IMG/VR virus record: IMGVR_UViG_3300032007_000010 | Origin: a virus | Taxonomy: Duplodnaviria > Caudoviricetes | Length of the DNA: 64,000 nucleotides | Direction: 5' to 3' (one strand) | Part shown: piece after piece, positions 8,804 through 59,043 of the stretch | Position numbering within the stretch: position 1 is the stretch's first letter | Layout of the letters: the number at the start of each line of letters is the position of its first letter | The notes under the pieces: generated by a model | Seen by the model: only the letters and a program-made list of their open reading frames with translations | Databases searched by the model: none | What the model was told of the DNA's origin: nothing | Made by a program: the position numbers and the translations under genes

Positions 8804-8811
8804 GAAAACAG

Positions 8812-8843
8812 AAAAGAGGGAGGGCAACCATGCCCTCCCTCTT
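8812..8843. terminator. Probable bidirectional terminator between convergent genes
   Basis: AAGAGGGAGGGCA/TGCCCTCCCTCTT 13-bp stem. Confidence 0.8.
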
Positions 8844-8846
8844 CGT

Positions 8847-9272
8847 TCACTGGTCAATCGCAGGAAGATATCTGTTCCAGTTTTCCTGCAGGCGCATGTT
8901 GCTCCGTGTCACGATCGTATCATACAGCTCCGCAAGCGAATCGGATGGTATGAGTTTTACCGTGGACTTCATGCGAAACTTGCTTGCGCATTCCTGATCA
9001 TTGATCATGAGTATGAGCCAGTCGAGATCGGGTGTCCCATACACATCGGCGCTCAGCAGCTTTGGTTTTGTTAGGTATCTGCGACGCTGTTCCTTGGTCA
9101 CCGAGTAGGTGCCAATGTAGGGGAGCATGTACCGTCTGTATATCTGGAATAGATCAGTATCTTTGATGAGCAGTGATTTGTCATCGGTGAGCGCATAGAA
9201 GGTGACATTGTTCATGTCATAGCGCGAATCCCTTGAATCGATGACATCCTGCAGAGTCACAAGCGTTGCCAT
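8847..9272 (-). CDS. Baseplate wedge protein, T4 gp53/LysM-like
   Basis: YLTKPKLLSADVYGTPDLDWLILMIN pattern; lies in a class II promoter operon. Confidence 0.75.
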   Translation of the reverse strand: MATLVTLQDVIDSRDSRYDMNNVTFYALTDDKSLLIKDTDLFQIYRRYMLPYIGTYSVTKEQRRRYLTKPKLLSADVYGTPDLDWLILMINDQECASKFRMKSTVKLIPSDSLAELYDTIVTRSNMRLQENWNRYLPAIDQ

Positions 9273-9284
9273 GCGTGCACCTCC

Positions 9285-9638
9285 TTAGATGTAGAGTAGA
9301 TAACCCTCCTCGATCTTCGCGGTGGGTGTGAAAAGTAGAAACGCGGTCCCCTTGTCCATGTAGATTGGACATGTTGTCCCGCGCAACAACGGAAGCTTCA
9401 TGGAGTGAGAAAGCGTGGCTACTCTGGTGGTGATTGGAAAGTTGCTGTTGGCAAAATAGTTTGGTGCCATGGAAACGGTCTCTTTCTTATCATCCTTTGG
9501 GACGGTTGGTACATATTCCGGCGCATTGATCTCGACCTCATTGCTAAGGCGAGGATTCTTTTCGGTGTAGGCTCTGGCGGTGTAGACCTTCATCACCTGC
9601 TTGCTCTGTGCATTCAGGGCAGTGTTGGTATTGGCCAC
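9285..9638 (-). CDS. Putative virion (baseplate-associated) protein
   Basis: AGGGGTG RBS before GTG 9638; class II promoter upstream; co-transcribed with the wedge gene. Confidence 0.6.
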   Translation of the reverse strand: MANTNTALNAQSKQVMKVYTARAYTEKNPRLSNEVEINAPEYVPTVPKDDKKETVSMAPNYFANSNFPITTRVATLSHSMKLPLLRGTTCPIYMDKGTAFLLFTPTAKIEEGYLLYI

Positions 9639-9670
9639 GAAAATCACCCCTGTCAATGATAAATCTTTGT

Positions 9671-9682
9671 TATAAGGATGTT
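9671..9682 (-). promoter_or_regulatory. Class II promoter
   Basis: AACATCCTTATA on the minus strand. Confidence 0.75.
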
Positions 9683-9688
9683 TTCCCA

Positions 9689-11053
9689 ATGAGTAAGAAC
9701 ATGACAATCAAAGCCCCGAAGAAACGTGAGAAGAAAAAGAGACCAGGAGACCTTCTCATCAAGATTCGGGATAAGATAGAATACGACGATCTCACCGCTC
9801 AGCAGAAAGAAGCGTGGAAACTTTTTTGTGATTGGTACTATTCTGAGAAGCATGCCGATTCTCAGATTCTTCGCATCGGTGGCCTGAGCGGCGTTGGGAA
9901 GTCGTTCTTGCTCAGATTTATCATCGAACAGATGGACTTTGACGAGGAGGAGTGCGCGGTGGTCGCATACACCGGTCAGGCGGTGAACGTGCTTCGCCAG
10001 GATGGGATTCTCGCGAAGACCATACACTCCACGTTCATGCACACCACCGACGAGATCATTCTCAACGAAGATGGTCGTCCTATCACACGATCTGGCATAC
10101 CCCTCACGAAGCTCAATTTCACACCGGTGAGAAGTCTTCCGGATCGCATCAAGTTGATCATCTGCGATGAGGCTTCATTTCTTCCCGAGAGTCTCCAGGA
10201 ACTCATGACCAAATACAACACTCCCATTCTGGAGACCGGAGATCCGCTCCAGCTCCCGCCCGTCACCGGAAAACAATGTTTCACGATGGACAATCTGGAC
10301 TATTTCATCACCCAGATCATGCGTCAGAACCTTGATTCGGAGATCATCAAGCTGGCCACCGCTATTCGTAACTATGAACCGGTGAACCTCGCCGACTATG
10401 GCCGCGAGGTGACCTTCCTCTGGGCACAGAACGACAATCTCGAGACCTTCATGAGGTTCATGCCGTTCTTTCGCGGCGTCGATCTCATCGTATCCAGCAC
10501 AAACAAACAGCGTCGCGAACTCACGGACTACTATCGGAAATACATCATCAGAACAAACTCACCCTATCCCCAGCGTGGTGAAAGGCTCATATGTCGACGC
10601 AATGACTGGAACATGAAGCTCAACCAGTTCCCACTCACAAACGGCACCATTGGCCGAGCACTGTACACAGTCTCCGGTGCGGATGTGAACACGAGCGCCG
10701 ACACATTTATAATGGACTTTCAGCCCGAGTTCATAAAGAATGATTACTATGACGGTCTTCTCTGCGACGCAAAGTTCCTCCGTGCTCCATTCGGAGACAA
10801 GGATATGACGTACTATGAGAATATGAATCCGGGTAAGAAGTTTGAGTATGCACACGTGATCACCACACAACTCTGTCAGGGCGCCAGCGCCAACTCGGTT
10901 CTGTTCATGGATAACTTCGCACACGATGAAGAGTATCACATGCGCCTGCGATACACCGCGGTGACGCGTGCGCGCCAGAGACTCTACTACATGCTCCCGA
11001 AGTCGCGCTACGGTAAATACACAGATCTCACATCTGGAGGCAGATCCCAATGA
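9689..11053 (+). CDS. SF1B helicase, Dda/RecD2-like
   Basis: LTAQQ, GLSGVGKS, AYTGQA, TIHS, ICDEAS, GDPLQLPPV, QIMRQ, YTAVTRA. Confidence 0.9.
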   Translation: MSKNMTIKAPKKREKKKRPGDLLIKIRDKIEYDDLTAQQKEAWKLFCDWYYSEKHADSQILRIGGLSGVGKSFLLRFIIEQMDFDEEECAVVAYTGQAVNVLRQDGILAKTIHSTFMHTTDEIILNEDGRPITRSGIPLTKLNFTPVRSLPDRIKLIICDEASFLPESLQELMTKYNTPILETGDPLQLPPVTGKQCFTMDNLDYFITQIMRQNLDSEIIKLATAIRNYEPVNLADYGREVTFLWAQNDNLETFMRFMPFFRGVDLIVSSTNKQRRELTDYYRKYIIRTNSPYPQRGERLICRRNDWNMKLNQFPLTNGTIGRALYTVSGADVNTSADTFIMDFQPEFIKNDYYDGLLCDAKFLRAPFGDKDMTYYENMNPGKKFEYAHVITTQLCQGASANSVLFMDNFAHDEEYHMRLRYTAVTRARQRLYYMLPKSRYGKYTDLTSGGRSQ

Positions 11054-34388: not shown

Positions 34389-36431
34389 ATGAGCAACAAG
34401 AAGAAGATCATGCCCGAAATCGAGAGACAGGTACGAGCCCAGGATGCTAATCTATACTATCCAACGGATAGGCTTGGGCCAGGATCTGTCATGACCCAGC
34501 AATCGCACACAAATGCTTCTCGTTTGATAATGGAAAATCATCAAATGAGCGACTGCATCAACATCAAGGATCCGGAACCGCCACTGGTACCGACCGGCTT
34601 CGAAAATGTCATGGGACAGTATTCCTTCATGACCAAGCGGGCCGACGGTGACTACGTGATCGTTGCGATATTCAAGAAGAATCAGTACAATGCGGTATAC
34701 ATCGGCTATGATAAGAAGCATCACCACTATGATGCCTGGAAGCGTCAGGAGATAGAGGAACATTCCGAGGGTTTCTGCACTCGCTATGATAACTCATATC
34801 TCGATTCGCTAGAGGTTGGCGATAAGATCAAGAAGGGTGACTATGTGAAAACGTCGAACGCCTTCGACAAGTATCGCAACTATGCACTCGGAAAGAATCT
34901 GAACACCCTCTACATGGTCAGCGCCCAGAATCTCGAGGATGGCATCATGGTCATGAATGGTGCCGAAAACAAGATGAATGCATACCACTGCGAGACGCTC
35001 ACCATCGGTCTCGCCAACAATCAAATCCTCATCAACTGGTATGGCGATGATGACCACTATCAGGGCATTCCGCTCGTTGGCGAGAAGACCAAAAAGGGCA
35101 TTTTGGCTGTGATTCGGAGGATCGATCATAGCATCGCTCCCTATGCGCTCAAGAAGAAGCGTCTCCAGCACATGGAGCGGACCGACGAAAGACGCGTTGG
35201 CAATGGACGTGTCATAGATATCGACATCCGTTTCAATGGTCCCACCGATAAACTTCCGACCACCGGAGCGAATAAGATGCTCACCGAGCTGTATCTGGAG
35301 CAGCAGAAATACTATCGAAAGCTCTATGAGTATATGATCAACATCGCCAACACCGCCTACGAGAAGGGCGATACCTACTCCGACAACTTTAGCATCATCT
35401 GCGAAGAAGCGCACAAATATGTCGACGCAATCGGCTTCTTCGGAGACAACAGTGATTCCGTGTATTCTGCGGAGCAGATGAAGATCAGCATCACGCTGCT
35501 CGAGGAAGAGAAGATGATCGTCGGTTCCAAGATGGTCGGCCGCTATGGCGACAAGGGTGTCATATCCCGCGTCTATACACCCGAGGAATCGTGGCACATG
35601 GAGGATGGAACCCCCATCGAGCTGGTGGTTGCGACCCTCGGCATCGTCGGTCGACTGAATCAGTCCCAGATGAACGAGTGCAATATTACCGAGCTCAGCA
35701 ACACCGCGGTGGAGATGATGCGTGCCACCGGTGATCTCGACATGAAGCTTGCCATCGTGCATCGGCTCATGAAGTATCTGAACTCTGACGAGGCTGACGA
35801 TTTTCGAAGGTTCACGAGACACATGGACTCCTCCGAGAAGAAGAAGCTGTGCCGTCGCATCGAGCGCGAGGGTATCTTCATCGTGCAGGATCCCATTGAC
35901 AATGCCGACATGTTCCAGATCGGCAAGGCTTACAAGGATTTCCCGCCGAACTTCCAGCACGTGATCTTCCCCGACGGCGGCAAGTCCATGTACAAGGTGA
36001 TCTGCTCCAAGAAATTCTACATGCGACTCAAGCAGGATCCGAAGGAAAAGTATTCGGCAAGATCCAGGGGCCCCGTCAATCCCATCACCACATTGCCGGC
36101 AAAGTCCAACCAGAAGAAGCGTGGTCTCGAACCCGTGTCCGATGTTCCGGTTCGCATCGGTGAGTACGAGCAGGAGGTGCTCAATGGCATGACCAACCAC
36201 CCGAAGGTCTGTGCCGACTTCATCGTTGAGAATTCGACGTCCTTCGAGGCGAAGATGCGCATGGCCGAGCACCAATACCTCGGTGATCTCGACGAAGATC
36301 TCGACATCACTGGCATGGAGTTTTCGGGTCAGAAGAACATCGAGGCGATCGACGCCTACAACTACATGTTTGGCGCACGCATCCGCCTCGAGGTCGAGGA
36401 GGCGAAGCCCGGTGAGTATTTCACGGATTGA
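34389..36431 (+). CDS. Non-virion RNA polymerase beta subunit, C-terminal half (AR9 gp089 / phiKZ gp71-73-like)
   Basis: SRLIMENHQ, PPLVPTGFE, GKN...NLEDG, GSKMVGRYGDKGVIS, GIVGRLN, FYMRLKQ, YSARS, VRIGEYE. Confidence 0.9.
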   Translation: MSNKKKIMPEIERQVRAQDANLYYPTDRLGPGSVMTQQSHTNASRLIMENHQMSDCINIKDPEPPLVPTGFENVMGQYSFMTKRADGDYVIVAIFKKNQYNAVYIGYDKKHHHYDAWKRQEIEEHSEGFCTRYDNSYLDSLEVGDKIKKGDYVKTSNAFDKYRNYALGKNLNTLYMVSAQNLEDGIMVMNGAENKMNAYHCETLTIGLANNQILINWYGDDDHYQGIPLVGEKTKKGILAVIRRIDHSIAPYALKKKRLQHMERTDERRVGNGRVIDIDIRFNGPTDKLPTTGANKMLTELYLEQQKYYRKLYEYMINIANTAYEKGDTYSDNFSIICEEAHKYVDAIGFFGDNSDSVYSAEQMKISITLLEEEKMIVGSKMVGRYGDKGVISRVYTPEESWHMEDGTPIELVVATLGIVGRLNQSQMNECNITELSNTAVEMMRATGDLDMKLAIVHRLMKYLNSDEADDFRRFTRHMDSSEKKKLCRRIEREGIFIVQDPIDNADMFQIGKAYKDFPPNFQHVIFPDGGKSMYKVICSKKFYMRLKQDPKEKYSARSRGPVNPITTLPAKSNQKKRGLEPVSDVPVRIGEYEQEVLNGMTNHPKVCADFIVENSTSFEAKMRMAEHQYLGDLDEDLDITGMEFSGQKNIEAIDAYNYMFGARIRLEVEEAKPGEYFTD

Positions 36432-40539: not shown

Positions 40540-42900
40540 ATGAGCAAGAACAAGAAGAAATCGAAGGTCTCTCTGGACAAATCTGTCGCAGAAGCCGCTC
40601 TCTACACGGGAGAGGATCTGGACGAGGATGGTTTCTTCATCCTCAAACCGACAGATGAGGGAAGGAAGCGCATCGATTCCAACAAACCAAAGCTCCGCGT
40701 CATCGAGGCCGAAGATTTCGAGCAGAACAAGGTGCTTCGAGAGATTGGCTATGACATTGAGCCGATCAGTGACATGGTGGATCGCATCGAGGATCACATT
40801 CGCCAGAACCGTTTCACCAAAGGCATTTCCGAATTCGACGCGCGCACCTTCGCCGGTTTCATCACCGAGCTCGAGAAGCTCAATCCGGAGGATAAGAATC
40901 CCGCGATCAAGCCGATGTTCGAGATTGCCCGCCGACTGATCACCATCGGAAAGTCGTACTACGAGTATGATACCGAGGTGCGAAACATCTTTTCGGATCG
41001 TCAGTATGACGCGCTCATCTCCATGTACAACAAGACCGGAAATCCCGAACCCACCGGCATCATTCCGAAGGGTCACAAAACTCTTCAGAAGGCGGCGCAG
41101 ACCTACAAGACGCTGCACAATAACATGGACAAGTGCTATATCATCCACGACGGTGAACCGATTCCGGAAGGCGTGAAGGAAACAGATTCGGTGCAGTCGT
41201 TCCTGACGAGGGTCTACAAAGAGTGTGATATTCCGCACAGCGTGCAAATCACCGTGGATCTTTCGCCGAAGGAGGATGGCGTCTCCGTCAATGGTACGGT
41301 CCACAATGGCAAGCTTCGCGGACCACAGACCCGCGGAGATGCGAACGAATCGGTGGTGGTGATCGGACTCAACAACGTCACGATTGCCGACGAGAAACTT
41401 GACCATGATGATTTCGGGATCCAGTTCGAGGCAATCTGTACCCGCGAGAATGCCAAGAAGGCGGAAGAGTATCTCAAGCTCGAGACTCCCTACGCATCTC
41501 CGAGACATGCCGCGGCCGGAATCATCCACAGGCTCAGCACCATGGAGGATTCCTACCTTGCGAGTCTCATCAGCCTGTATCCGATCAATTCCGAGGGTCT
41601 CGAAGGTACCTATCTTGAGAGAATGGACTTTCTGCGGAATTTTGCACTGATGCCCGCGGATACCCCCTCCAGAAGGCTCGTGACGGGCAATTTCGAAGAA
41701 CTCTTGTCCCAGATTCAAAAATACTTCGAGGAAATGATCGATGCACGTTCCGAGCTCGGTCATTCCATCGACGGCATTGTGATCAGCATCGCCAACGACG
41801 AATATCAGGAGCGCATGGGCAGACTCGGTCGCACCAATAAATGGCAGATTGCGCTCAAGTTCAATCCGGCTTCCGAGAATTCCAAGGCGAGCTATATCCG
41901 TCTGGATTCTGGACGCAAAGGATATCGAACCCTGCAACTCTATCTCGAGCATCCGGTTCTGCTCGATGGCGTCGAATATGATCATGTGCCAATCTTGTCC
42001 ACGCGTCTATTCAAGGAACACAATCTCCGGCATGGCACCGTGGTCAACATCCATCGAGTCGGCGATGTGATCCCGGCAATCAGCGTGGTCGAAGAGGGCA
42101 AGGGCGAGAGACTCAGGCTCCCGGAGGTTTGTCCGAGCTGTGGCAAACGCCTCGTGATCAAGAACGAGAAGCTCTACTGCGACAATGATCGTTGTCCCGA
42201 CAATCTCGTAGGGCTCCTCGTTGGGTTCTTCGAAACCATGGGCATGGACGGCTATTCGGATTCCTTCGCACGCCTCCTCATCGAGAAGATGCATGTGACG
42301 TCGATCGGAGATCTGCTCGACCTCGAAGATGAGGACTTCAGGAAGGCCGATTGTCTCGGTGCACTATCCGTCGGAGTCGCTGATCTGCTCACCAAGGCAA
42401 TCGAATCCAAGCGAGATTTTGAGATTCTCGGCGCGATGGGTATTCCAAACATGGGTTCCGCCAGAGCCCAGAAGTTTATCCAGGCGTTTGCCGAGGACAT
42501 CGATTGGACCGAAGAGGGGCCGGAGCTCATGCTCACGAACAAGTCCAAGGTCACAAAGGCTCTCAGCTTCGCACTCGCACCTTCGATGTTTGAGGACGCC
42601 AATGAGTTCTACTGGGGACACTGGTTCCAGAAATCCTGGAAGGCTCTCATTCCTCACATCAAGAAGAGGGTCAGCGGAGGAAAGGAGAAGATTACTCGGG
42701 TTGGACATCATGGTGGCAAGCTCAGTGCCGAAGTCCGCGCCGTCTGTGATAAGAACGGATTCATCATCACGGACGGTTCTGGTTTCGACATTCTCATCAC
42801 CACATCGCTCTCCGGAGGAGGAACCAAGATGAACCGAGCGAGGAAGTTGAACCTTCCTATCTATCTTCCCGAGAGCTTCATTGGGCAGTATGGTGCCTGA
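40540..42900 (+). CDS. ligA: NAD-dependent DNA ligase
   Basis: SDRQYD (Ia), PKEDG (motif I), TRGD, PRHAAAG, IDGIV, ALKF, GDVIP, CPSC...C...C, BRCT-like end; N-terminal extension with the DEDGFFIL tag. Confidence 0.92.
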   Translation: MSKNKKKSKVSLDKSVAEAALYTGEDLDEDGFFILKPTDEGRKRIDSNKPKLRVIEAEDFEQNKVLREIGYDIEPISDMVDRIEDHIRQNRFTKGISEFDARTFAGFITELEKLNPEDKNPAIKPMFEIARRLITIGKSYYEYDTEVRNIFSDRQYDALISMYNKTGNPEPTGIIPKGHKTLQKAAQTYKTLHNNMDKCYIIHDGEPIPEGVKETDSVQSFLTRVYKECDIPHSVQITVDLSPKEDGVSVNGTVHNGKLRGPQTRGDANESVVVIGLNNVTIADEKLDHDDFGIQFEAICTRENAKKAEEYLKLETPYASPRHAAAGIIHRLSTMEDSYLASLISLYPINSEGLEGTYLERMDFLRNFALMPADTPSRRLVTGNFEELLSQIQKYFEEMIDARSELGHSIDGIVISIANDEYQERMGRLGRTNKWQIALKFNPASENSKASYIRLDSGRKGYRTLQLYLEHPVLLDGVEYDHVPILSTRLFKEHNLRHGTVVNIHRVGDVIPAISVVEEGKGERLRLPEVCPSCGKRLVIKNEKLYCDNDRCPDNLVGLLVGFFETMGMDGYSDSFARLLIEKMHVTSIGDLLDLEDEDFRKADCLGALSVGVADLLTKAIESKRDFEILGAMGIPNMGSARAQKFIQAFAEDIDWTEEGPELMLTNKSKVTKALSFALAPSMFEDANEFYWGHWFQKSWKALIPHIKKRVSGGKEKITRVGHHGGKLSAEVRAVCDKNGFIITDGSGFDILITTSLSGGGTKMNRARKLNLPIYLPESFIGQYGA

Positions 42901-42921
42901 ATTAGAAACTGACAAGGGGGT

Positions 42922-42933
42922 AACATATTTATA
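42922..42933 (+). promoter_or_regulatory. Class II promoter driving the candidate ncRNA
   Basis: AACATATTTATA, flanked by the AACTGACA/TGTCAGTT inverted repeat. Confidence 0.75.
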
Positions 42934-43405
42934 GATGTCAGTTGAAAAATCCGGATGCGGACGGCTGGCGCTTCTAGGTGCCCCTGCAACCTGCTCCCGG
43001 TCGAGGGAGTGGGGACCGGGTGTTACCGGAATTTCGGCACCAAGTTGGCTGTCCGTGTCGTTCTTGTGTGGTGGTAGATCCCCTCCCTGGAGCGCATAGG
43101 CGATCCTGTGGCCATAAGTAGCTGGGTACATTCTATGGGGTGTGCTGATGGTGAAAAAGGTGGTTCAGGGGCGAGCCAGATGGTAGACTTCGTGGGCTAC
43201 TTCTGGTGAAAGATGGGTTATCCCAGGCCAGGGTTTGGAAACATCATCACATGTTGAATCATCAGATGATCAACACGCAGTTACCCATAGTCATAACGAT
43301 TCTTTCGACGATGTGTGAGCATTGGTATAGTCACAATCGCCGTGTGGTTATCAAAGCTTTGAATGAACCAAGTTGCAACGCGGGAGGAGTCAAACGGCTC
43401 CTCCC
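42933..43405 (+). ncRNA. Candidate large structured non-coding RNA (~470 nt), family not recognised
   Basis: No credible ORF; own promoter; more than 10 nested helices with many G-U pairs, candidate pseudoknots and a closing 10-bp hairpin. Confidence 0.75.
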
Positions 43406-43429
43406 TCATTACATTTTCACAGTAACGAA

Positions 43430-43441
43430 TACATTATTATA
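43430..43441 (+). promoter_or_regulatory. Class II promoter followed by a hairpin leader
   Basis: TACATTATTATA; leader hairpin GGGGTGATGTG/CACAGCACTCC. Confidence 0.7.
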
Positions 43442-43525
43442 CCTGGAAAGGGGTGATGTGGTGTAGCATGCACAGCACTCCCACCGCAGACAAAAAGTGA
43501 TCACTAAACACAGGAGGAACAAGAC

Positions 43526-44260
43526 ATGTCTGAATTGACCATCAAAGCATTCGTTGCACAGGAGCATTCTGCCTTTGAGAACTTCACCGGCGTCATGGCG
43601 GCTCGCATCGAGGAGGCCTGGACTCGCAGTCTGGCCAAGCGCATGAAGGAGCAGCTCGCCGAGAAGGATCGTGCGGTCGTCGCGCTTCCCTGGGGTACCT
43701 ACTATGCTGAAAAGATCGCCAAGGGTGAGGCCGGCAACATCGCCCCGAAGTGGGAGCCGAGCAAGGGCTTCCGCCAGATCCTCAACAATGACATCCAGGA
43801 TCCCACCGAGCGTTCCGCCGCGGTCAACATGGACGAGATCGATGCGCGCTTCATCCAGCTCTTCCGCGAGTTCGTCGCCTATGGCTGCTTTGACCACGAC
43901 GATCCTGCCAAGAAGGATGACCTGGCCAAGAACAAGGGTATTCGCATCGGCGACAACGAGGCCAACTATTTCCTCAACGAGTATGCGCTGGTGCTGGCGA
44001 ACCTTGCTCGTGAGAAGCAGCGTGATGGGAAGATCTTCCGCCTCGAGATCAACAATGGTTTCGCGCACGGCGTCTTCGACTTCACGTATGACGATGACGA
44101 GGTCAAGGTTACCTGGACCGCGGACAAGACCTTCAAGCAGATGCTCAAGGACGACGAGTCGGCCGCGCACATCGACGATGGTCGGTTTGCCGAGGTCGTC
44201 GGTAGCCGTCGCATCGAGACAGATCTCGAGACCGGCAAGCAGACCGTCACCGACAACTAA
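43526..44260 (+). CDS. Abundant protein with two tandem HU/IHF-like repeats (putative)
   Basis: VALPWGTYYAE...PKWEPSKGFRQILN and GFAHGVFDF...VTWTADKTFKQMLK resemble HU GFGTF...PKFKPGKALK; very biased codons. Confidence 0.55.
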   Translation: MSELTIKAFVAQEHSAFENFTGVMAARIEEAWTRSLAKRMKEQLAEKDRAVVALPWGTYYAEKIAKGEAGNIAPKWEPSKGFRQILNNDIQDPTERSAAVNMDEIDARFIQLFREFVAYGCFDHDDPAKKDDLAKNKGIRIGDNEANYFLNEYALVLANLAREKQRDGKIFRLEINNGFAHGVFDFTYDDDEVKVTWTADKTFKQMLKDDESAAHIDDGRFAEVVGSRRIETDLETGKQTVTDN

Positions 44261-47471: not shown

Positions 47472-48275
47472 TCATACCAGGTGATAGTACGAAGCGAATT
47501 GACGGTCCGGGAACGATTTGAGTCTAAGTTCCTTGAGATACTCTTCGCGCTCGGATTCTGCGTTGGACCAATCAAAGCGAAGCTGGAGATTGCCGGATGG
47601 TGTCACGATATCCTCAATGTATCTCAGCGAATGCCAGAGGTACTGTTTTACATCCAGCGATGCGAGCTTCATAAGATGTTCCTTGTACTCCTCCGGGACA
47701 CAATGCAGATTCGGATAGCTGCACTTGAACACGATCTCCGCCGTGGACATGAATGCATAGTTGCGAAGATATACGAGCGCGGTTCCAACACCGCTGGATC
47801 GAAGCTCATGGTACCTCTTCCACGGAAACGCGAAATCTGTCAGGGTACGGTTGTAGGTGTATTCTGAACCCATGAGCACCGCATCGAGCGTGATGTTGTT
47901 TCTGGAAGCGACGATGCTGGAATAGTATGAGCTGCTGTTCGGATCATAGGGATCGACCGTTGCACCATCTGCGGCTCCGGCCCAGCTATTATAGTCAATC
48001 TTCTCTATGCCGAGGATCTTGACACCCCACTTGACCAGTGTCGGATCTTCGATGTAGTATTCGTTGCCGAGCGTATGATTTGGGTTTGCAATCATCTCGT
48101 CCTTCTTGTCGATGGTCAGATAGTAGCGATATAGTCCGGGGAGATAGTTGCTGAAGGTGTCGAGCGTCCTTGTTTCGACGAGTTTCACGAGCACCGGCAA
48201 TGTGCTTTCGAGACCCAGCACGTCGAGTCCGAGGACGCGTTCGAACAGATCCTTGTAGAATCCTTGTACGTTCAT
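47472..48275 (-). CDS. Putative virion structural protein (neck/head-completion-like)
   Basis: Class II promoter; AAGGAGGT RBS; the function is inferred from expression class and C-terminal pattern only. Confidence 0.6.
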   Translation of the reverse strand: MNVQGFYKDLFERVLGLDVLGLESTLPVLVKLVETRTLDTFSNYLPGLYRYYLTIDKKDEMIANPNHTLGNEYYIEDPTLVKWGVKILGIEKIDYNSWAGAADGATVDPYDPNSSSYYSSIVASRNNITLDAVLMGSEYTYNRTLTDFAFPWKRYHELRSSGVGTALVYLRNYAFMSTAEIVFKCSYPNLHCVPEEYKEHLMKLASLDVKQYLWHSLRYIEDIVTPSGNLQLRFDWSNAESEREEYLKELRLKSFPDRQFASYYHLV

Positions 48276-48310
48276 TATGAATAAAACCTCCTTCGGTGAA
48301 ATGTCTCTTA

Positions 48311-48322
48311 TATAGGGATGTT
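48311..48322 (-). promoter_or_regulatory. Class II promoter
   Basis: AACATCCCTATA on the minus strand. Confidence 0.78.
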
Positions 48323-48344
48323 CCGGTTTTTATGACCAGCGGAT

Positions 48345-48355
48345 TATATATTATA
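48345..48355 (+). promoter_or_regulatory. Class I promoter
   Basis: TATATATTATA. Confidence 0.75.
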
Positions 48356-48459
48356 GTGGTGAGATGGGATCAAAGAACCACCCATCCACACATTATCCAT
48401 TGCAAGAGGATATCAATAGATCTTGCTCTTCCGATCCGGAAGTAAAATGGAGGTATACG

Positions 48460-57181: not shown

Positions 57182-57216
57182 GCGTATCATTTTATAAATA
57201 TGCAATGAAAGTTCAT

Positions 57217-57228
57217 AACAACAATATA
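57217..57228 (+). promoter_or_regulatory. Class II promoter with a ~150-nt structured leader
   Basis: AACAACAATATA; leader contains the CCTGGGAG/CTCCCAGG stem. Confidence 0.75.
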
Positions 57229-57381
57229 ATGGACGATTTTTGGTAATGGATTGCGTGTTCTATTAACGAAATATCGTTCCAGGCTGCCTGGGGAGTGTAT
57301 CCTCCCAGGGGTACGCTCATACAACATAGCTGTCCAGACCCATTTTTACTTTTAATTTTCATGAAAGGAGGCTGCGTAATA

Positions 57382-59043
57382 ATGAGTGCACTGTTTGGTG
57401 GTACTAATAAGAGCCACGACATCATTGACATTGTTGCCAGTCTGCAGAAGGGCACCAAGGCCATCTGCAACGAGAGCGTCGCCGGTACGGACGTCTCTGA
57501 CATCCAGATCAAGAATATGGCCGATAACATCAAGGACCTCATGCTGGAACACTACAGCAAGATTCTCCCCGATGAAAAGTTCGAGACCATGCTCCAGGAA
57601 GATGCTGACTCCGTCAGCCAGATCTTCATCAACAACCTGGCCGAGTCCAAGAACTCCCTCAACGAGTCCGCGTCTCTGCCCAGCCTGGTCACCCTCACCG
57701 CGTCCATCGCCACGACCATGCGTACTCCGTACGAGGCCGTGCTGCATCGCCTCTTCGACACTCGTACTCTGGACAAGCAGACCGTCGAGATCGAGGAGGT
57801 CATTCCGACCATCAAGGCTCCCGGCGAGGACCGCGAGGAGGACCTGATCGACGCGCTGGCTCCCTATGCGCCCACTCCGTTCGTTGATCGTACCGAGATC
57901 GAGGTCGAGACTCTCACCGGTGGTCTGGTTCCCGGCGCTGCCTGCAAGAACCTGCCTCTGCTCGAGGGCAAGAACCCGCTCTTCAAGATCAACCGCGATG
58001 TCCGCATCACCAAGATCGACGTCGAGATCGATGGTGTGGCCGTTCCCGAGGAGAAGATCTCCATGGCGAAGGGCACGACCCCCTATTTCGATGCGAAGAA
58101 CAACACTCTGAGCTGCGTGTTCGACGTCAACGCCGACTCCGGCTTCACCACCGTGACCGTCGATGCGAAGCTCGACTTTGATCGCAGCATGATGGTGTCC
58201 CTGCATGCCGATGAGGCCGTCAAGAAGGTTTACTTCTATGCGACCGTGAATCATCAGGAGCACACCCACCCGATCTACACGAGTTTCCGCAACAACTTCA
58301 CGCAGTTCATCGTGCCGACCCGTCCGCACATCGAGATCAGCCTGCCGCAGGAGATGCGCACCGATATCGCGAACAGCATTCAGCACTTCGCGAACACGGA
58401 CATCATCACCGCCATGACCGAGAACATCACGGTGATCAGCTCCCGCATGGAGGATCAGCGCCTGAAGAAGTGCCTGGACGAGGGTCACGAGTTCGAGGCC
58501 ATGTTCCCGTTCGATGCTCCCGGCTACTTCGCCTATGGCAACCTCGAGTGGATCCGTCGCGAGTTCATCCCGTTCCTGGATCAGTGCGCGCTCAAGATGA
58601 AGAACGACTGGAACATCACCGACTGCCACTTCCGCGTCGGCGTCAGCCCCTACATCCTGCGCATCCTGGATACGGACTACACCATGGACAAGAGCCTGAG
58701 CGAAGAGAGCAAGGGCAGCGGCGTCATCAACTACAGCATCGGCTGCAAGACGTCCACCAGCACCTTCTACTTCATCAGCTCTCAGCAGATCAACGACAGC
58801 ACGCTGCAGATGCTGCTGATCCCCAACAACTTCACCAACAGCCAGGTCAAGACCTACAACTACTTCAAGTACAGCTCTTTCCTGACTGACCAGCTCCGCC
58901 GCGCGGACAACCATGCGCAGCCCGCGATCGTCTACAGCGAGCGCAATCTGCCCGTGGTCTTCCGCCCGCTCAGCACTGTCTGCACCATTGACGGCATGCC
59001 CGTTGAGAAGGAAGACGGTACGCGCTGGATCAAGCGTGTCTAA
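57382..59043 (+). CDS. Probable major capsid protein
   Basis: Among the strongest codon bias in the window; own class II promoter and terminator; N-terminal propeptide ending near SLNE-SA; near the protease and head genes. Confidence 0.7.
   Translation: MSALFGGTNKSHDIIDIVASLQKGTKAICNESVAGTDVSDIQIKNMADNIKDLMLEHYSKILPDEKFETMLQEDADSVSQIFINNLAESKNSLNESASLPSLVTLTASIATTMRTPYEAVLHRLFDTRTLDKQTVEIEEVIPTIKAPGEDREEDLIDALAPYAPTPFVDRTEIEVETLTGGLVPGAACKNLPLLEGKNPLFKINRDVRITKIDVEIDGVAVPEEKISMAKGTTPYFDAKNNTLSCVFDVNADSGFTTVTVDAKLDFDRSMMVSLHADEAVKKVYFYATVNHQEHTHPIYTSFRNNFTQFIVPTRPHIEISLPQEMRTDIANSIQHFANTDIITAMTENITVISSRMEDQRLKKCLDEGHEFEAMFPFDAPGYFAYGNLEWIRREFIPFLDQCALKMKNDWNITDCHFRVGVSPYILRILDTDYTMDKSLSEESKGSGVINYSIGCKTSTSTFYFISSQQINDSTLQMLLIPNNFTNSQVKTYNYFKYSSFLTDQLRRADNHAQPAIVYSERNLPVVFRPLSTVCTIDGMPVEKEDGTRWIKRV

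Follow-up and report, generated by a model that had tools for sequence, protein, structure and literature searches.

What occupies the long interval that separates the ligase gene from its 3' neighbour in the genome of this uncultured phage? The window, by which we mean the whole 64,000-nucleotide stretch of viral DNA analysed here, had been the subject of a sequence-only reading, which singled out this interval as the one long gap lacking a credible gene and took it to contain a new or diverged large structured RNA. The comparison with relatives presented below supports that view. The RNA of this locus is non-coding and syntenic, covaries, works as the + strand RNA and matches no Rfam family. 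Our best explanation, which we would give a probability of about 0.55, is that an undescribed family of structured non-coding RNAs has a member here, ~470 nt long and encoded by a gene that stands alone.

Among the genes of the window are those for gyrase B and A, for a NAD-dependent ligase and for an RNA polymerase beta subunit that is split. The RNA gene lies inside a cluster of non-virion RNA polymerase genes, whose beta-C subunit (34389-36431) has its best match in Bacillus phages AR9 and PBS1, at only 27% identity; by this measure, these are the nearest cultured relatives of the window phage. This ligase is also found on contigs of up to 230-290 kb from ENA, Logan and JGI metagenomes, and a few of the ligase homologues are binned under the names of gut or rumen bacteria. 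The source is an uncultured jumbo phage of an AR9-related gut clade with its own multisubunit RNA polymerases.

No open reading frame (ORF) is conserved between the ligase gene and the next gene. Short ORFs are called in this gap in some relatives, and the longest stretch without a stop codon changes its strand, its frame and its location from one to another of the 12 lineages compared. Two further gaps are apparent on the + strand of the window, at 8804-9607 and 47868-48363. They coincide with apparent - strand genes (8847-9707 and 47472-48275) for which an AGGAGG and an ATG are visible in the reverse complement, giving them ribosome-binding sites of their own, and their + strand folds are unremarkable (z = +0.4 and -1.8). 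Because both look like - strand genes, the description of the RNA slot as the only long gene-free gap seems right.

We traced ligase homologues (43-50% identity) to their contigs, and searched JGI and IMG/VR data for loci related through the downstream gene. Nearly all traced loci have a gap of 500-650 nt between the ligase and the homologue of the 244-aa gene, and the gap sequences can be aligned with one another, being identical over long blocks. The DNA of the RNA core is 68-74% identical to that of the nearer clades, compared with 59-61% for the ligase gene. A covariance model of the core (R1), seeded from six relatives in which each helix holds, matched 25 of 33 sources, counting the window, with a single full-length match at each locus, E-values of 1e-15 to 1e-39 and all matches on the + strand. 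The same ligase-to-HU-like-gene gap holds a + strand homologue in 24 other metagenomic loci (~12 lineages), with synteny conserved. Run with filters off on L007, L008, L009, L017, L019, L021, L025 and L026, the core model gave no significant match; in L008 and L009, 194 nt separate the two genes, and they contain nothing beyond the promoter for the downstream one.

Single-protein locus searches in IMG/VR returned nothing, as did a first core pattern run against the same database. A gapped core pattern, run against IMG/VR and 185,579 species genomes (one genome per prokaryote species), returned two contigs that were already known; its five remaining matches are rejected by the model and due to chance. 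When the flagged region was used as a DNA query against cultured phages, no match was obtained. In these searches the RNA occurs only within a single clade of gut jumbo phages related to AR9, where it occupies one fixed locus.

Late promoters of AR9 have the form AACA-(6N)-TA/G, and transcription starts at their final base (PMC5312081). The motif at 42922-42933, which had been read as a class II promoter, fits this consensus exactly and is kept in all lineages, with TAACA and the ATA near +1 invariant across relatives. A looser form of the motif is about twofold enriched in intergenic DNA (11 observed, 5.0 expected). The strict form TAACAnnnnWATA is found in the window only at the RNA promoter and at 57216-57228. 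From the latter copy it is 67 nt to the gene for the major head protein (57295-59043, phrog_20655), which lies downstream. The non-virion RNA polymerase of the phage would presumably transcribe the RNA from this AR9-type late promoter, whose strict form is also that of the putative promoter of the major head protein gene.

At the other end of the transcript, the 10-bp hairpin noticed at 43382-43405 is present in the window and has equivalents in relatives: hairpins of other sequence stand at the corresponding place in every lineage, each followed by a conserved U-rich stretch. Beyond it, and ahead of the 244-aa gene, comes a second promoter-like element (43430-43441), with its position and spacing kept in all lineages. 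Because this element is conserved, the RNA looks like a separate unit rather than a mere leader of the downstream gene. The hairpin, which is of intrinsic type, would halt transcription before the polymerase reaches the promoter that serves the 244-aa gene. Between the promoter-like element and the ribosome-binding site, within 43430-43525, the 5'-UTR contains a conserved hairpin (GGUGRUG...CCAC). The coordinates of these and of the structural features are collected in Table 1.

Table 1. Features of the RNA locus, in window coordinates.
Feature	Position	Strand	Remarks
Ligase gene	40540-42900	+	5' neighbour of the RNA gene
AR9-type late promoter, AACA-N6-TA (putative)	42922-42933	+	AACA 42922-25, six bases, TA 42932-33; predicted +1 = A42933
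RNA gene	42933-43405	+	Predicted transcript ~473 nt; ~300-440 nt in relatives
Leader	42933-42953	+	
5' arm, P1-P4	42954-43059	+	From minimum-energy fold and R3; distal part varies between lineages
P1	42954-69/43044-59	+	Model R3
P2	42977-82/43036-41	+	Model R3
P3	42990-98/43005-13	+	Recurs with other sequences in L001, L002, L004, L006, L015
P4	43016-19/43026-29	+	Recurs with other sequences in L001, L002, L004, L006, L015
P5 rod	43065-75/43243-53 and 43079-81/43237-39	+	Duplex of core-flanking segments
Core, five-way junction	43085-43233	+	Model R1; seed structure holds in six relatives
C0	43085-90/43228-33	+	Closes the junction bearing C1, C2 (carrying C3), C4 and C5
C1	43093-95/43100-02	+	
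C2	43104-08/43166-70 and 43110-15/43160-65	+	
Internal loop C2/C3, 5' side, A-AGUA	43116-43120	+	AGUA 43117-20 invariant in 17 distinct sequences
C3	43121-23/43150-52 and 43125-33/43138-46	+	
Internal loop C2/C3, 3' side, GAAA-N-AG	43153-43159	+	G43153, A43154-56, A43158 and G43159 invariant
C4	43176-80/43202-06, 43182-86/43197-201, 43188-89/43194-95	+	
C5	43213-17/43222-26	+	
C6 hairpin with bulged A	43254-56/43271-73, A43257, 43258-62/43266-70	+	Covaries
Variable 3' region	43274-43381	+	Length ~0-110 nt among lineages
Terminator hairpin (predicted)	43382-43405	+	10 bp, loop AAAC, U-rich tail; -18.8 kcal/mol
Promoter-like element of downstream gene	43430-43441	+	TACA-N6-TA, slightly off-consensus; AACA or AACG in relatives; +1 ~43441
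244-aa gene (putatively HU-like)	43526-44260	+	3' neighbour of the RNA gene

The evidence that the RNA is folded, and folded in one particular way, comes from covariation. In the R1 alignment, 95.5% of the cells of the 48 core pairs are standard pairs, compared with 36-41% after a shift of the partners by 1-3 columns, and the covariation score is 0.59, compared with 0.07-0.11 for slid partners; the alignment was fitted to the model, which flatters the structure, but the margin is large and raw MAFFT alignments also show the compensatory changes clearly. Both sides have changed in 34 of the 48 pairs, and none of 500 shuffles was as good. A second model (R3), built for the 5'-arm helices P1 and P2, behaves similarly: 97.4% of its cells are paired, as opposed to 29-41% after sliding, both sides have changed in 13 of 22 pairs, and the shuffles again gave 0 of 500. 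The two models together contain 47 pairs that have changed on both sides, and ~70 base pairs are supported by covariation, which is strong in the core and in the 5' arm.

G-U pairs make up 172 of the 777 pair cells, and this 22% share identifies the + strand as the functional RNA. The argument from abundant G-U pairs, which had been made from the window sequence, is borne out by this count and by the occurrence of model matches on the + strand only. The folding energy of the region gives less: z is -2.2 on the + strand and -2.0 on the - strand, which is weak by itself. The case rests on comparison with relatives and not on energy.

The fold consists of a long 5' arm, followed by a rod capped by a five-way junction, then a variable tail and the terminator. 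The P5 duplex of the rod was present in 12 of 13 loci tested, as 12-20 bp of differing sequence (z = -2.2 to -5.7 relative to shuffles); L020 is the only locus in which it is non-significant. The L005 clade (L005, L016, L030, L031) lacks C3 and keeps the AGUA and GAAA loop strands together with the rest of the core, a clean loss of the kind expected of a modular hairpin. The C6 pattern, YUG-A-stem-loop-stem-CAR, was recognized by script in 10 of 12 lineages and by eye in L020, with compensatory changes both in the outer pairs (UUG/CAA and CUG/CAG) and in the stem (AUC/GAU, AUUCUC/GAGAAU and ACAAUC/GAUUGU). A closing helix between 5' leader and 3' tail, which appears in the minimum-energy fold of the window, was considered and rejected: it is not conserved (z = -1.1 to +1.2).

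This fold differs in large part from the one drawn by eye in the sequence-only reading, of which about four of ten helices hold, in addition to the promoter and the terminator. The two proximal helices of the 5' arm had been placed correctly, and both covary as P1 and P2. The helix 43176-43186/43197-43206 is C4, and 43252-43261/43267-43275 is approximately C6. The core and the 3' half were mostly wrong. In place of 42996-43002/43014-43020, relatives favour P3 and P4, and the pseudoknot that had been drawn with 43080-43088 fails, with 43079-90 pairing elsewhere (P5b, C0) and the proposed partner not conserved. Three helices of the proposed core (43099-43112/43330-43341, 43127-43132/43310-43315 and 43133-43139/43284-43290) have their 3' partners in a stretch that relatives lack and their 5' partners in the covarying helices C2/C3. 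Two more (43146-43153/43242-43249 and 43223-43228/43233-43238) are unsupported, since their partners belong to covarying helices or to sequence that relatives lack, and neither of the long-range pairings, 43161-43167/43364-43370 and 42985-42990/43372-43377, has conserved partners. Some 40-50 nt of the 3' tail (~43290-43340), a stretch used by several of these helices, are absent from all aligned relatives.

Eighteen unpaired bases are invariant among 17 distinct sequences, including the AGUA and GAAA-AG of the internal loop between C2 and C3. AGUA opposite GAA is the canonical sequence of the sarcin-ricin motif (PMC1865062). In the window RNA, AGUA (43117-20) stands opposite GAA (43153-55) across a loop that flanks helix C3, with the GAA abutting C3. 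Judged by its sequence, this loop is likely to adopt the sarcin-ricin three-dimensional motif.

Could the RNA belong to a family that is already known? Rfam 15 gave no match at gathering score over the whole window, and relaxed searches (E<=10 for 42700-43700, E<=1 for nine relatives) returned only noise, such as fragments of snoRNA, miRNA and CrcZ models. ARAGORN found neither tRNA nor tmRNA in the window. The earlier impression that this is not RNase P, tmRNA, SRP RNA, tRNA or a group II intron, and that it lies outside known families, agrees with these searches. Membership of GOLLD or ROOL was rejected on the lack of any covariance-model match in the window or nine homologous loci. Rejected too were 6S RNA, which has no Rfam match here and does not share the covariation-supported five-way junction with arms, and the group I and II introns and known self-cleaving ribozymes, which likewise have no Rfam match; the element stands between complete genes, with a predicted promoter and terminator of its own. 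As the RNA lies within no gene, it is not an intron.

The same slot between ligase and HU-like gene is occupied in two other clades by a different, strongly structured RNA, 'type 2' (L007:6232-6800, z = -5.7; L026:1960-2400, z = -8.3). The two copies have a late-type promoter and share blocks such as GGUGGAAGAGAGA...GCAUCCACC and GGUAUAAGAAA. Locus and promoter type are those of the window RNA, but the core model of the latter is blind to type 2 even with filters off, and the window RNA is a distinct form.

The 244-aa protein encoded downstream is highly conserved. It falls in no Pfam or PHROGs family, and no homologue was found in a search of cultured phages. Its structure model (pLDDT 73) contains two helix-sheet-helix repeats, and Foldseek comparison of the model with the PDB gave zero matches at E<=0.001. 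In an exhaustive fold comparison the top matches were microtubule inner proteins (Z 9-11); below them came single-chain IHF (Z 7.2, 127 residues, rmsd 4.0), and HU and Hbb scored Z 4-5 per repeat. On this model it is plausible that the gene encodes a tandem HU/IHF-like protein.

What might the RNA do? Complex, conserved large RNAs are rare, and most of those that are understood are ribozymes, cores of ribonucleoproteins (RNPs) or RNA-only assemblies. We tentatively favour, at less than even odds, a folded scaffold that acts in trans by binding protein. The preference stems from the junction purines, the docking-type motif, the arms of kept length, the strong late-type promoter and the neighbouring protein, which resembles nucleic-acid-binding proteins. 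Sarcin-ricin motifs are usually docking sites, and a docking surface could be offered by the rigid five-way junction, in which both the AGUA/GAA loop and the purines of the junction itself are invariant. The long arms P1 and P5, kept in length and free in sequence, might act as spacers or as second contact sites. The most obvious candidate partner would be the tandem HU/IHF-like protein encoded next door, although its top fold matches, the microtubule inner proteins, speak against an HU partner. Obligate pairing is unlikely, since the HU-like gene occurs without this RNA, both in L008 and L009, with their 194-nt gap, and in L007 and L026, with the other RNA.

The features that suggest a protein-binding scaffold can be read in other ways. 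A large, ornate, phage-carried RNA with length-kept arms of free sequence and many invariant unpaired purines might instead be an RNA-only multimer like ROOL, GOLLD or OLE, whose arms would make intermolecular contacts in a protein-free cage or ring; ROOL and GOLLD are reported to form such RNA-only assemblies (10.1101/2024.12.08.627333). We consider this unlikely here, given that there is no homology to ROOL or GOLLD, that no conserved self-complementary loop was noticed and that the distal P1 arm is swapped wholesale between lineages. Less likely again is a leader acting in cis on 43526-44260, a giant sensor that would choose between termination at 43382-43405 and read-through. The RNA does always lie directly upstream of the HU-like gene; the two share a strand, and a terminator separates them. 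Against regulation of this kind are the conserved promoter-like element that separates terminator and gene, the 0-110 nt of unconserved sequence between conserved fold and terminator, and the HU-like gene of L008 and L009, which is served by a short gap. Nor is there a conserved alternative pairing with the terminator, the CCCCUCCCU of the window (43080-88) being absent from relatives. On the same spacer and promoter-like element, and with no conserved antiterminator, we rejected a riboswitch-like leader.

The compact multi-helix junction with its invariant unpaired bases would also suit a ribozyme of a new class, self-cleaving or otherwise catalytic. No Rfam ribozyme model matches, however, and no conserved feature resembling a cleavage site or pseudoknot was found, so that we rate catalysis as improbable, on a par with the leader. 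We give slightly less credence to a 6S-like regulator that would bind the phage RNA polymerase by promoter mimicry. The position of the gene in the non-virion RNA polymerase cluster and the rod-like P5/C0 helix are what recommend it; no 6S model matches, the fold is a junction instead of a rod with a central bubble, and the conserved unpaired bases appear, when read by eye, to lack UGUU, the template-strand motif of AR9 promoters. That there is no functional RNA at all, and that the region folds by chance, encodes a small protein or is the remnant of something in decay, is largely refuted. It could draw on the modest energy z-scores of the two strands and the short ORFs called in some relatives, but it is contradicted by covariation at 47 pairs, by conserved synteny and by the lack of a shared ORF, and has almost no weight left.

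Whatever its role, the RNA is a defined target for structural work (SHAPE, cryo-EM) and for partner hunts. The presence of different RNAs at one locus in sister clades suggests that structured RNAs are a regular, unannotated part of the late programme. An extended version of this idea, which is speculative and on balance improbable, is that the slot between ligase and HU-like gene is a dedicated 'RNA gene locus' for fast-evolving, highly expressed late RNAs, the window RNA and type 2 among them, each a subunit of a so far undescribed phage RNP or RNA-only assembly. If this were true, examples might be an RNA partner of the HU-like protein, an armless tandem, in organizing or packaging phage DNA, or a new large ribozyme.

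Several known systems resemble parts of this locus. One is AR9 (73000-84000), in which, as in the window phage, beta-C is followed by the ligase, an IHF-like protein (gp102) and beta-N. Together with the kinship of beta-C and the sequence and spacing of the late promoter, whose use in the window phage we infer, this ties the RNA gene to AR9 late units. In AR9, however, just 46 nt follow the ligase, without an RNA-sized gap; the RNA slot is therefore a feature of the uncultured clade, and AR9 has no counterpart. At the level of the loop, the likeness is to the sarcin-ricin (bulged-G, loop E) motif of rRNAs, with AGUA opposite GAA, adjoining a helix and here invariant; the difference is that in the phage RNA it forms an internal loop with four further conserved bases (A, A, A and G). 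The packaging RNA (pRNA) of phi29 is also structured, phage-encoded and built with helical arms, and it acts together with proteins. It is much shorter, at 174 nt, and has no Rfam match here; only the late-type promoter hints at packaging. ROOL and GOLLD (RF03087, RF01998), both large and ornate, are frequently encoded by phages or prophages. They differ from the window RNA in sequence and structure, with no match to either, and the arrangement here, a 5' arm plus a rod with a five-way junction, belongs to one clade and one locus. In kind they nevertheless resemble it, each being a large (~400-800 nt), multi-helix, stand-alone phage RNA gene backed by covariation.
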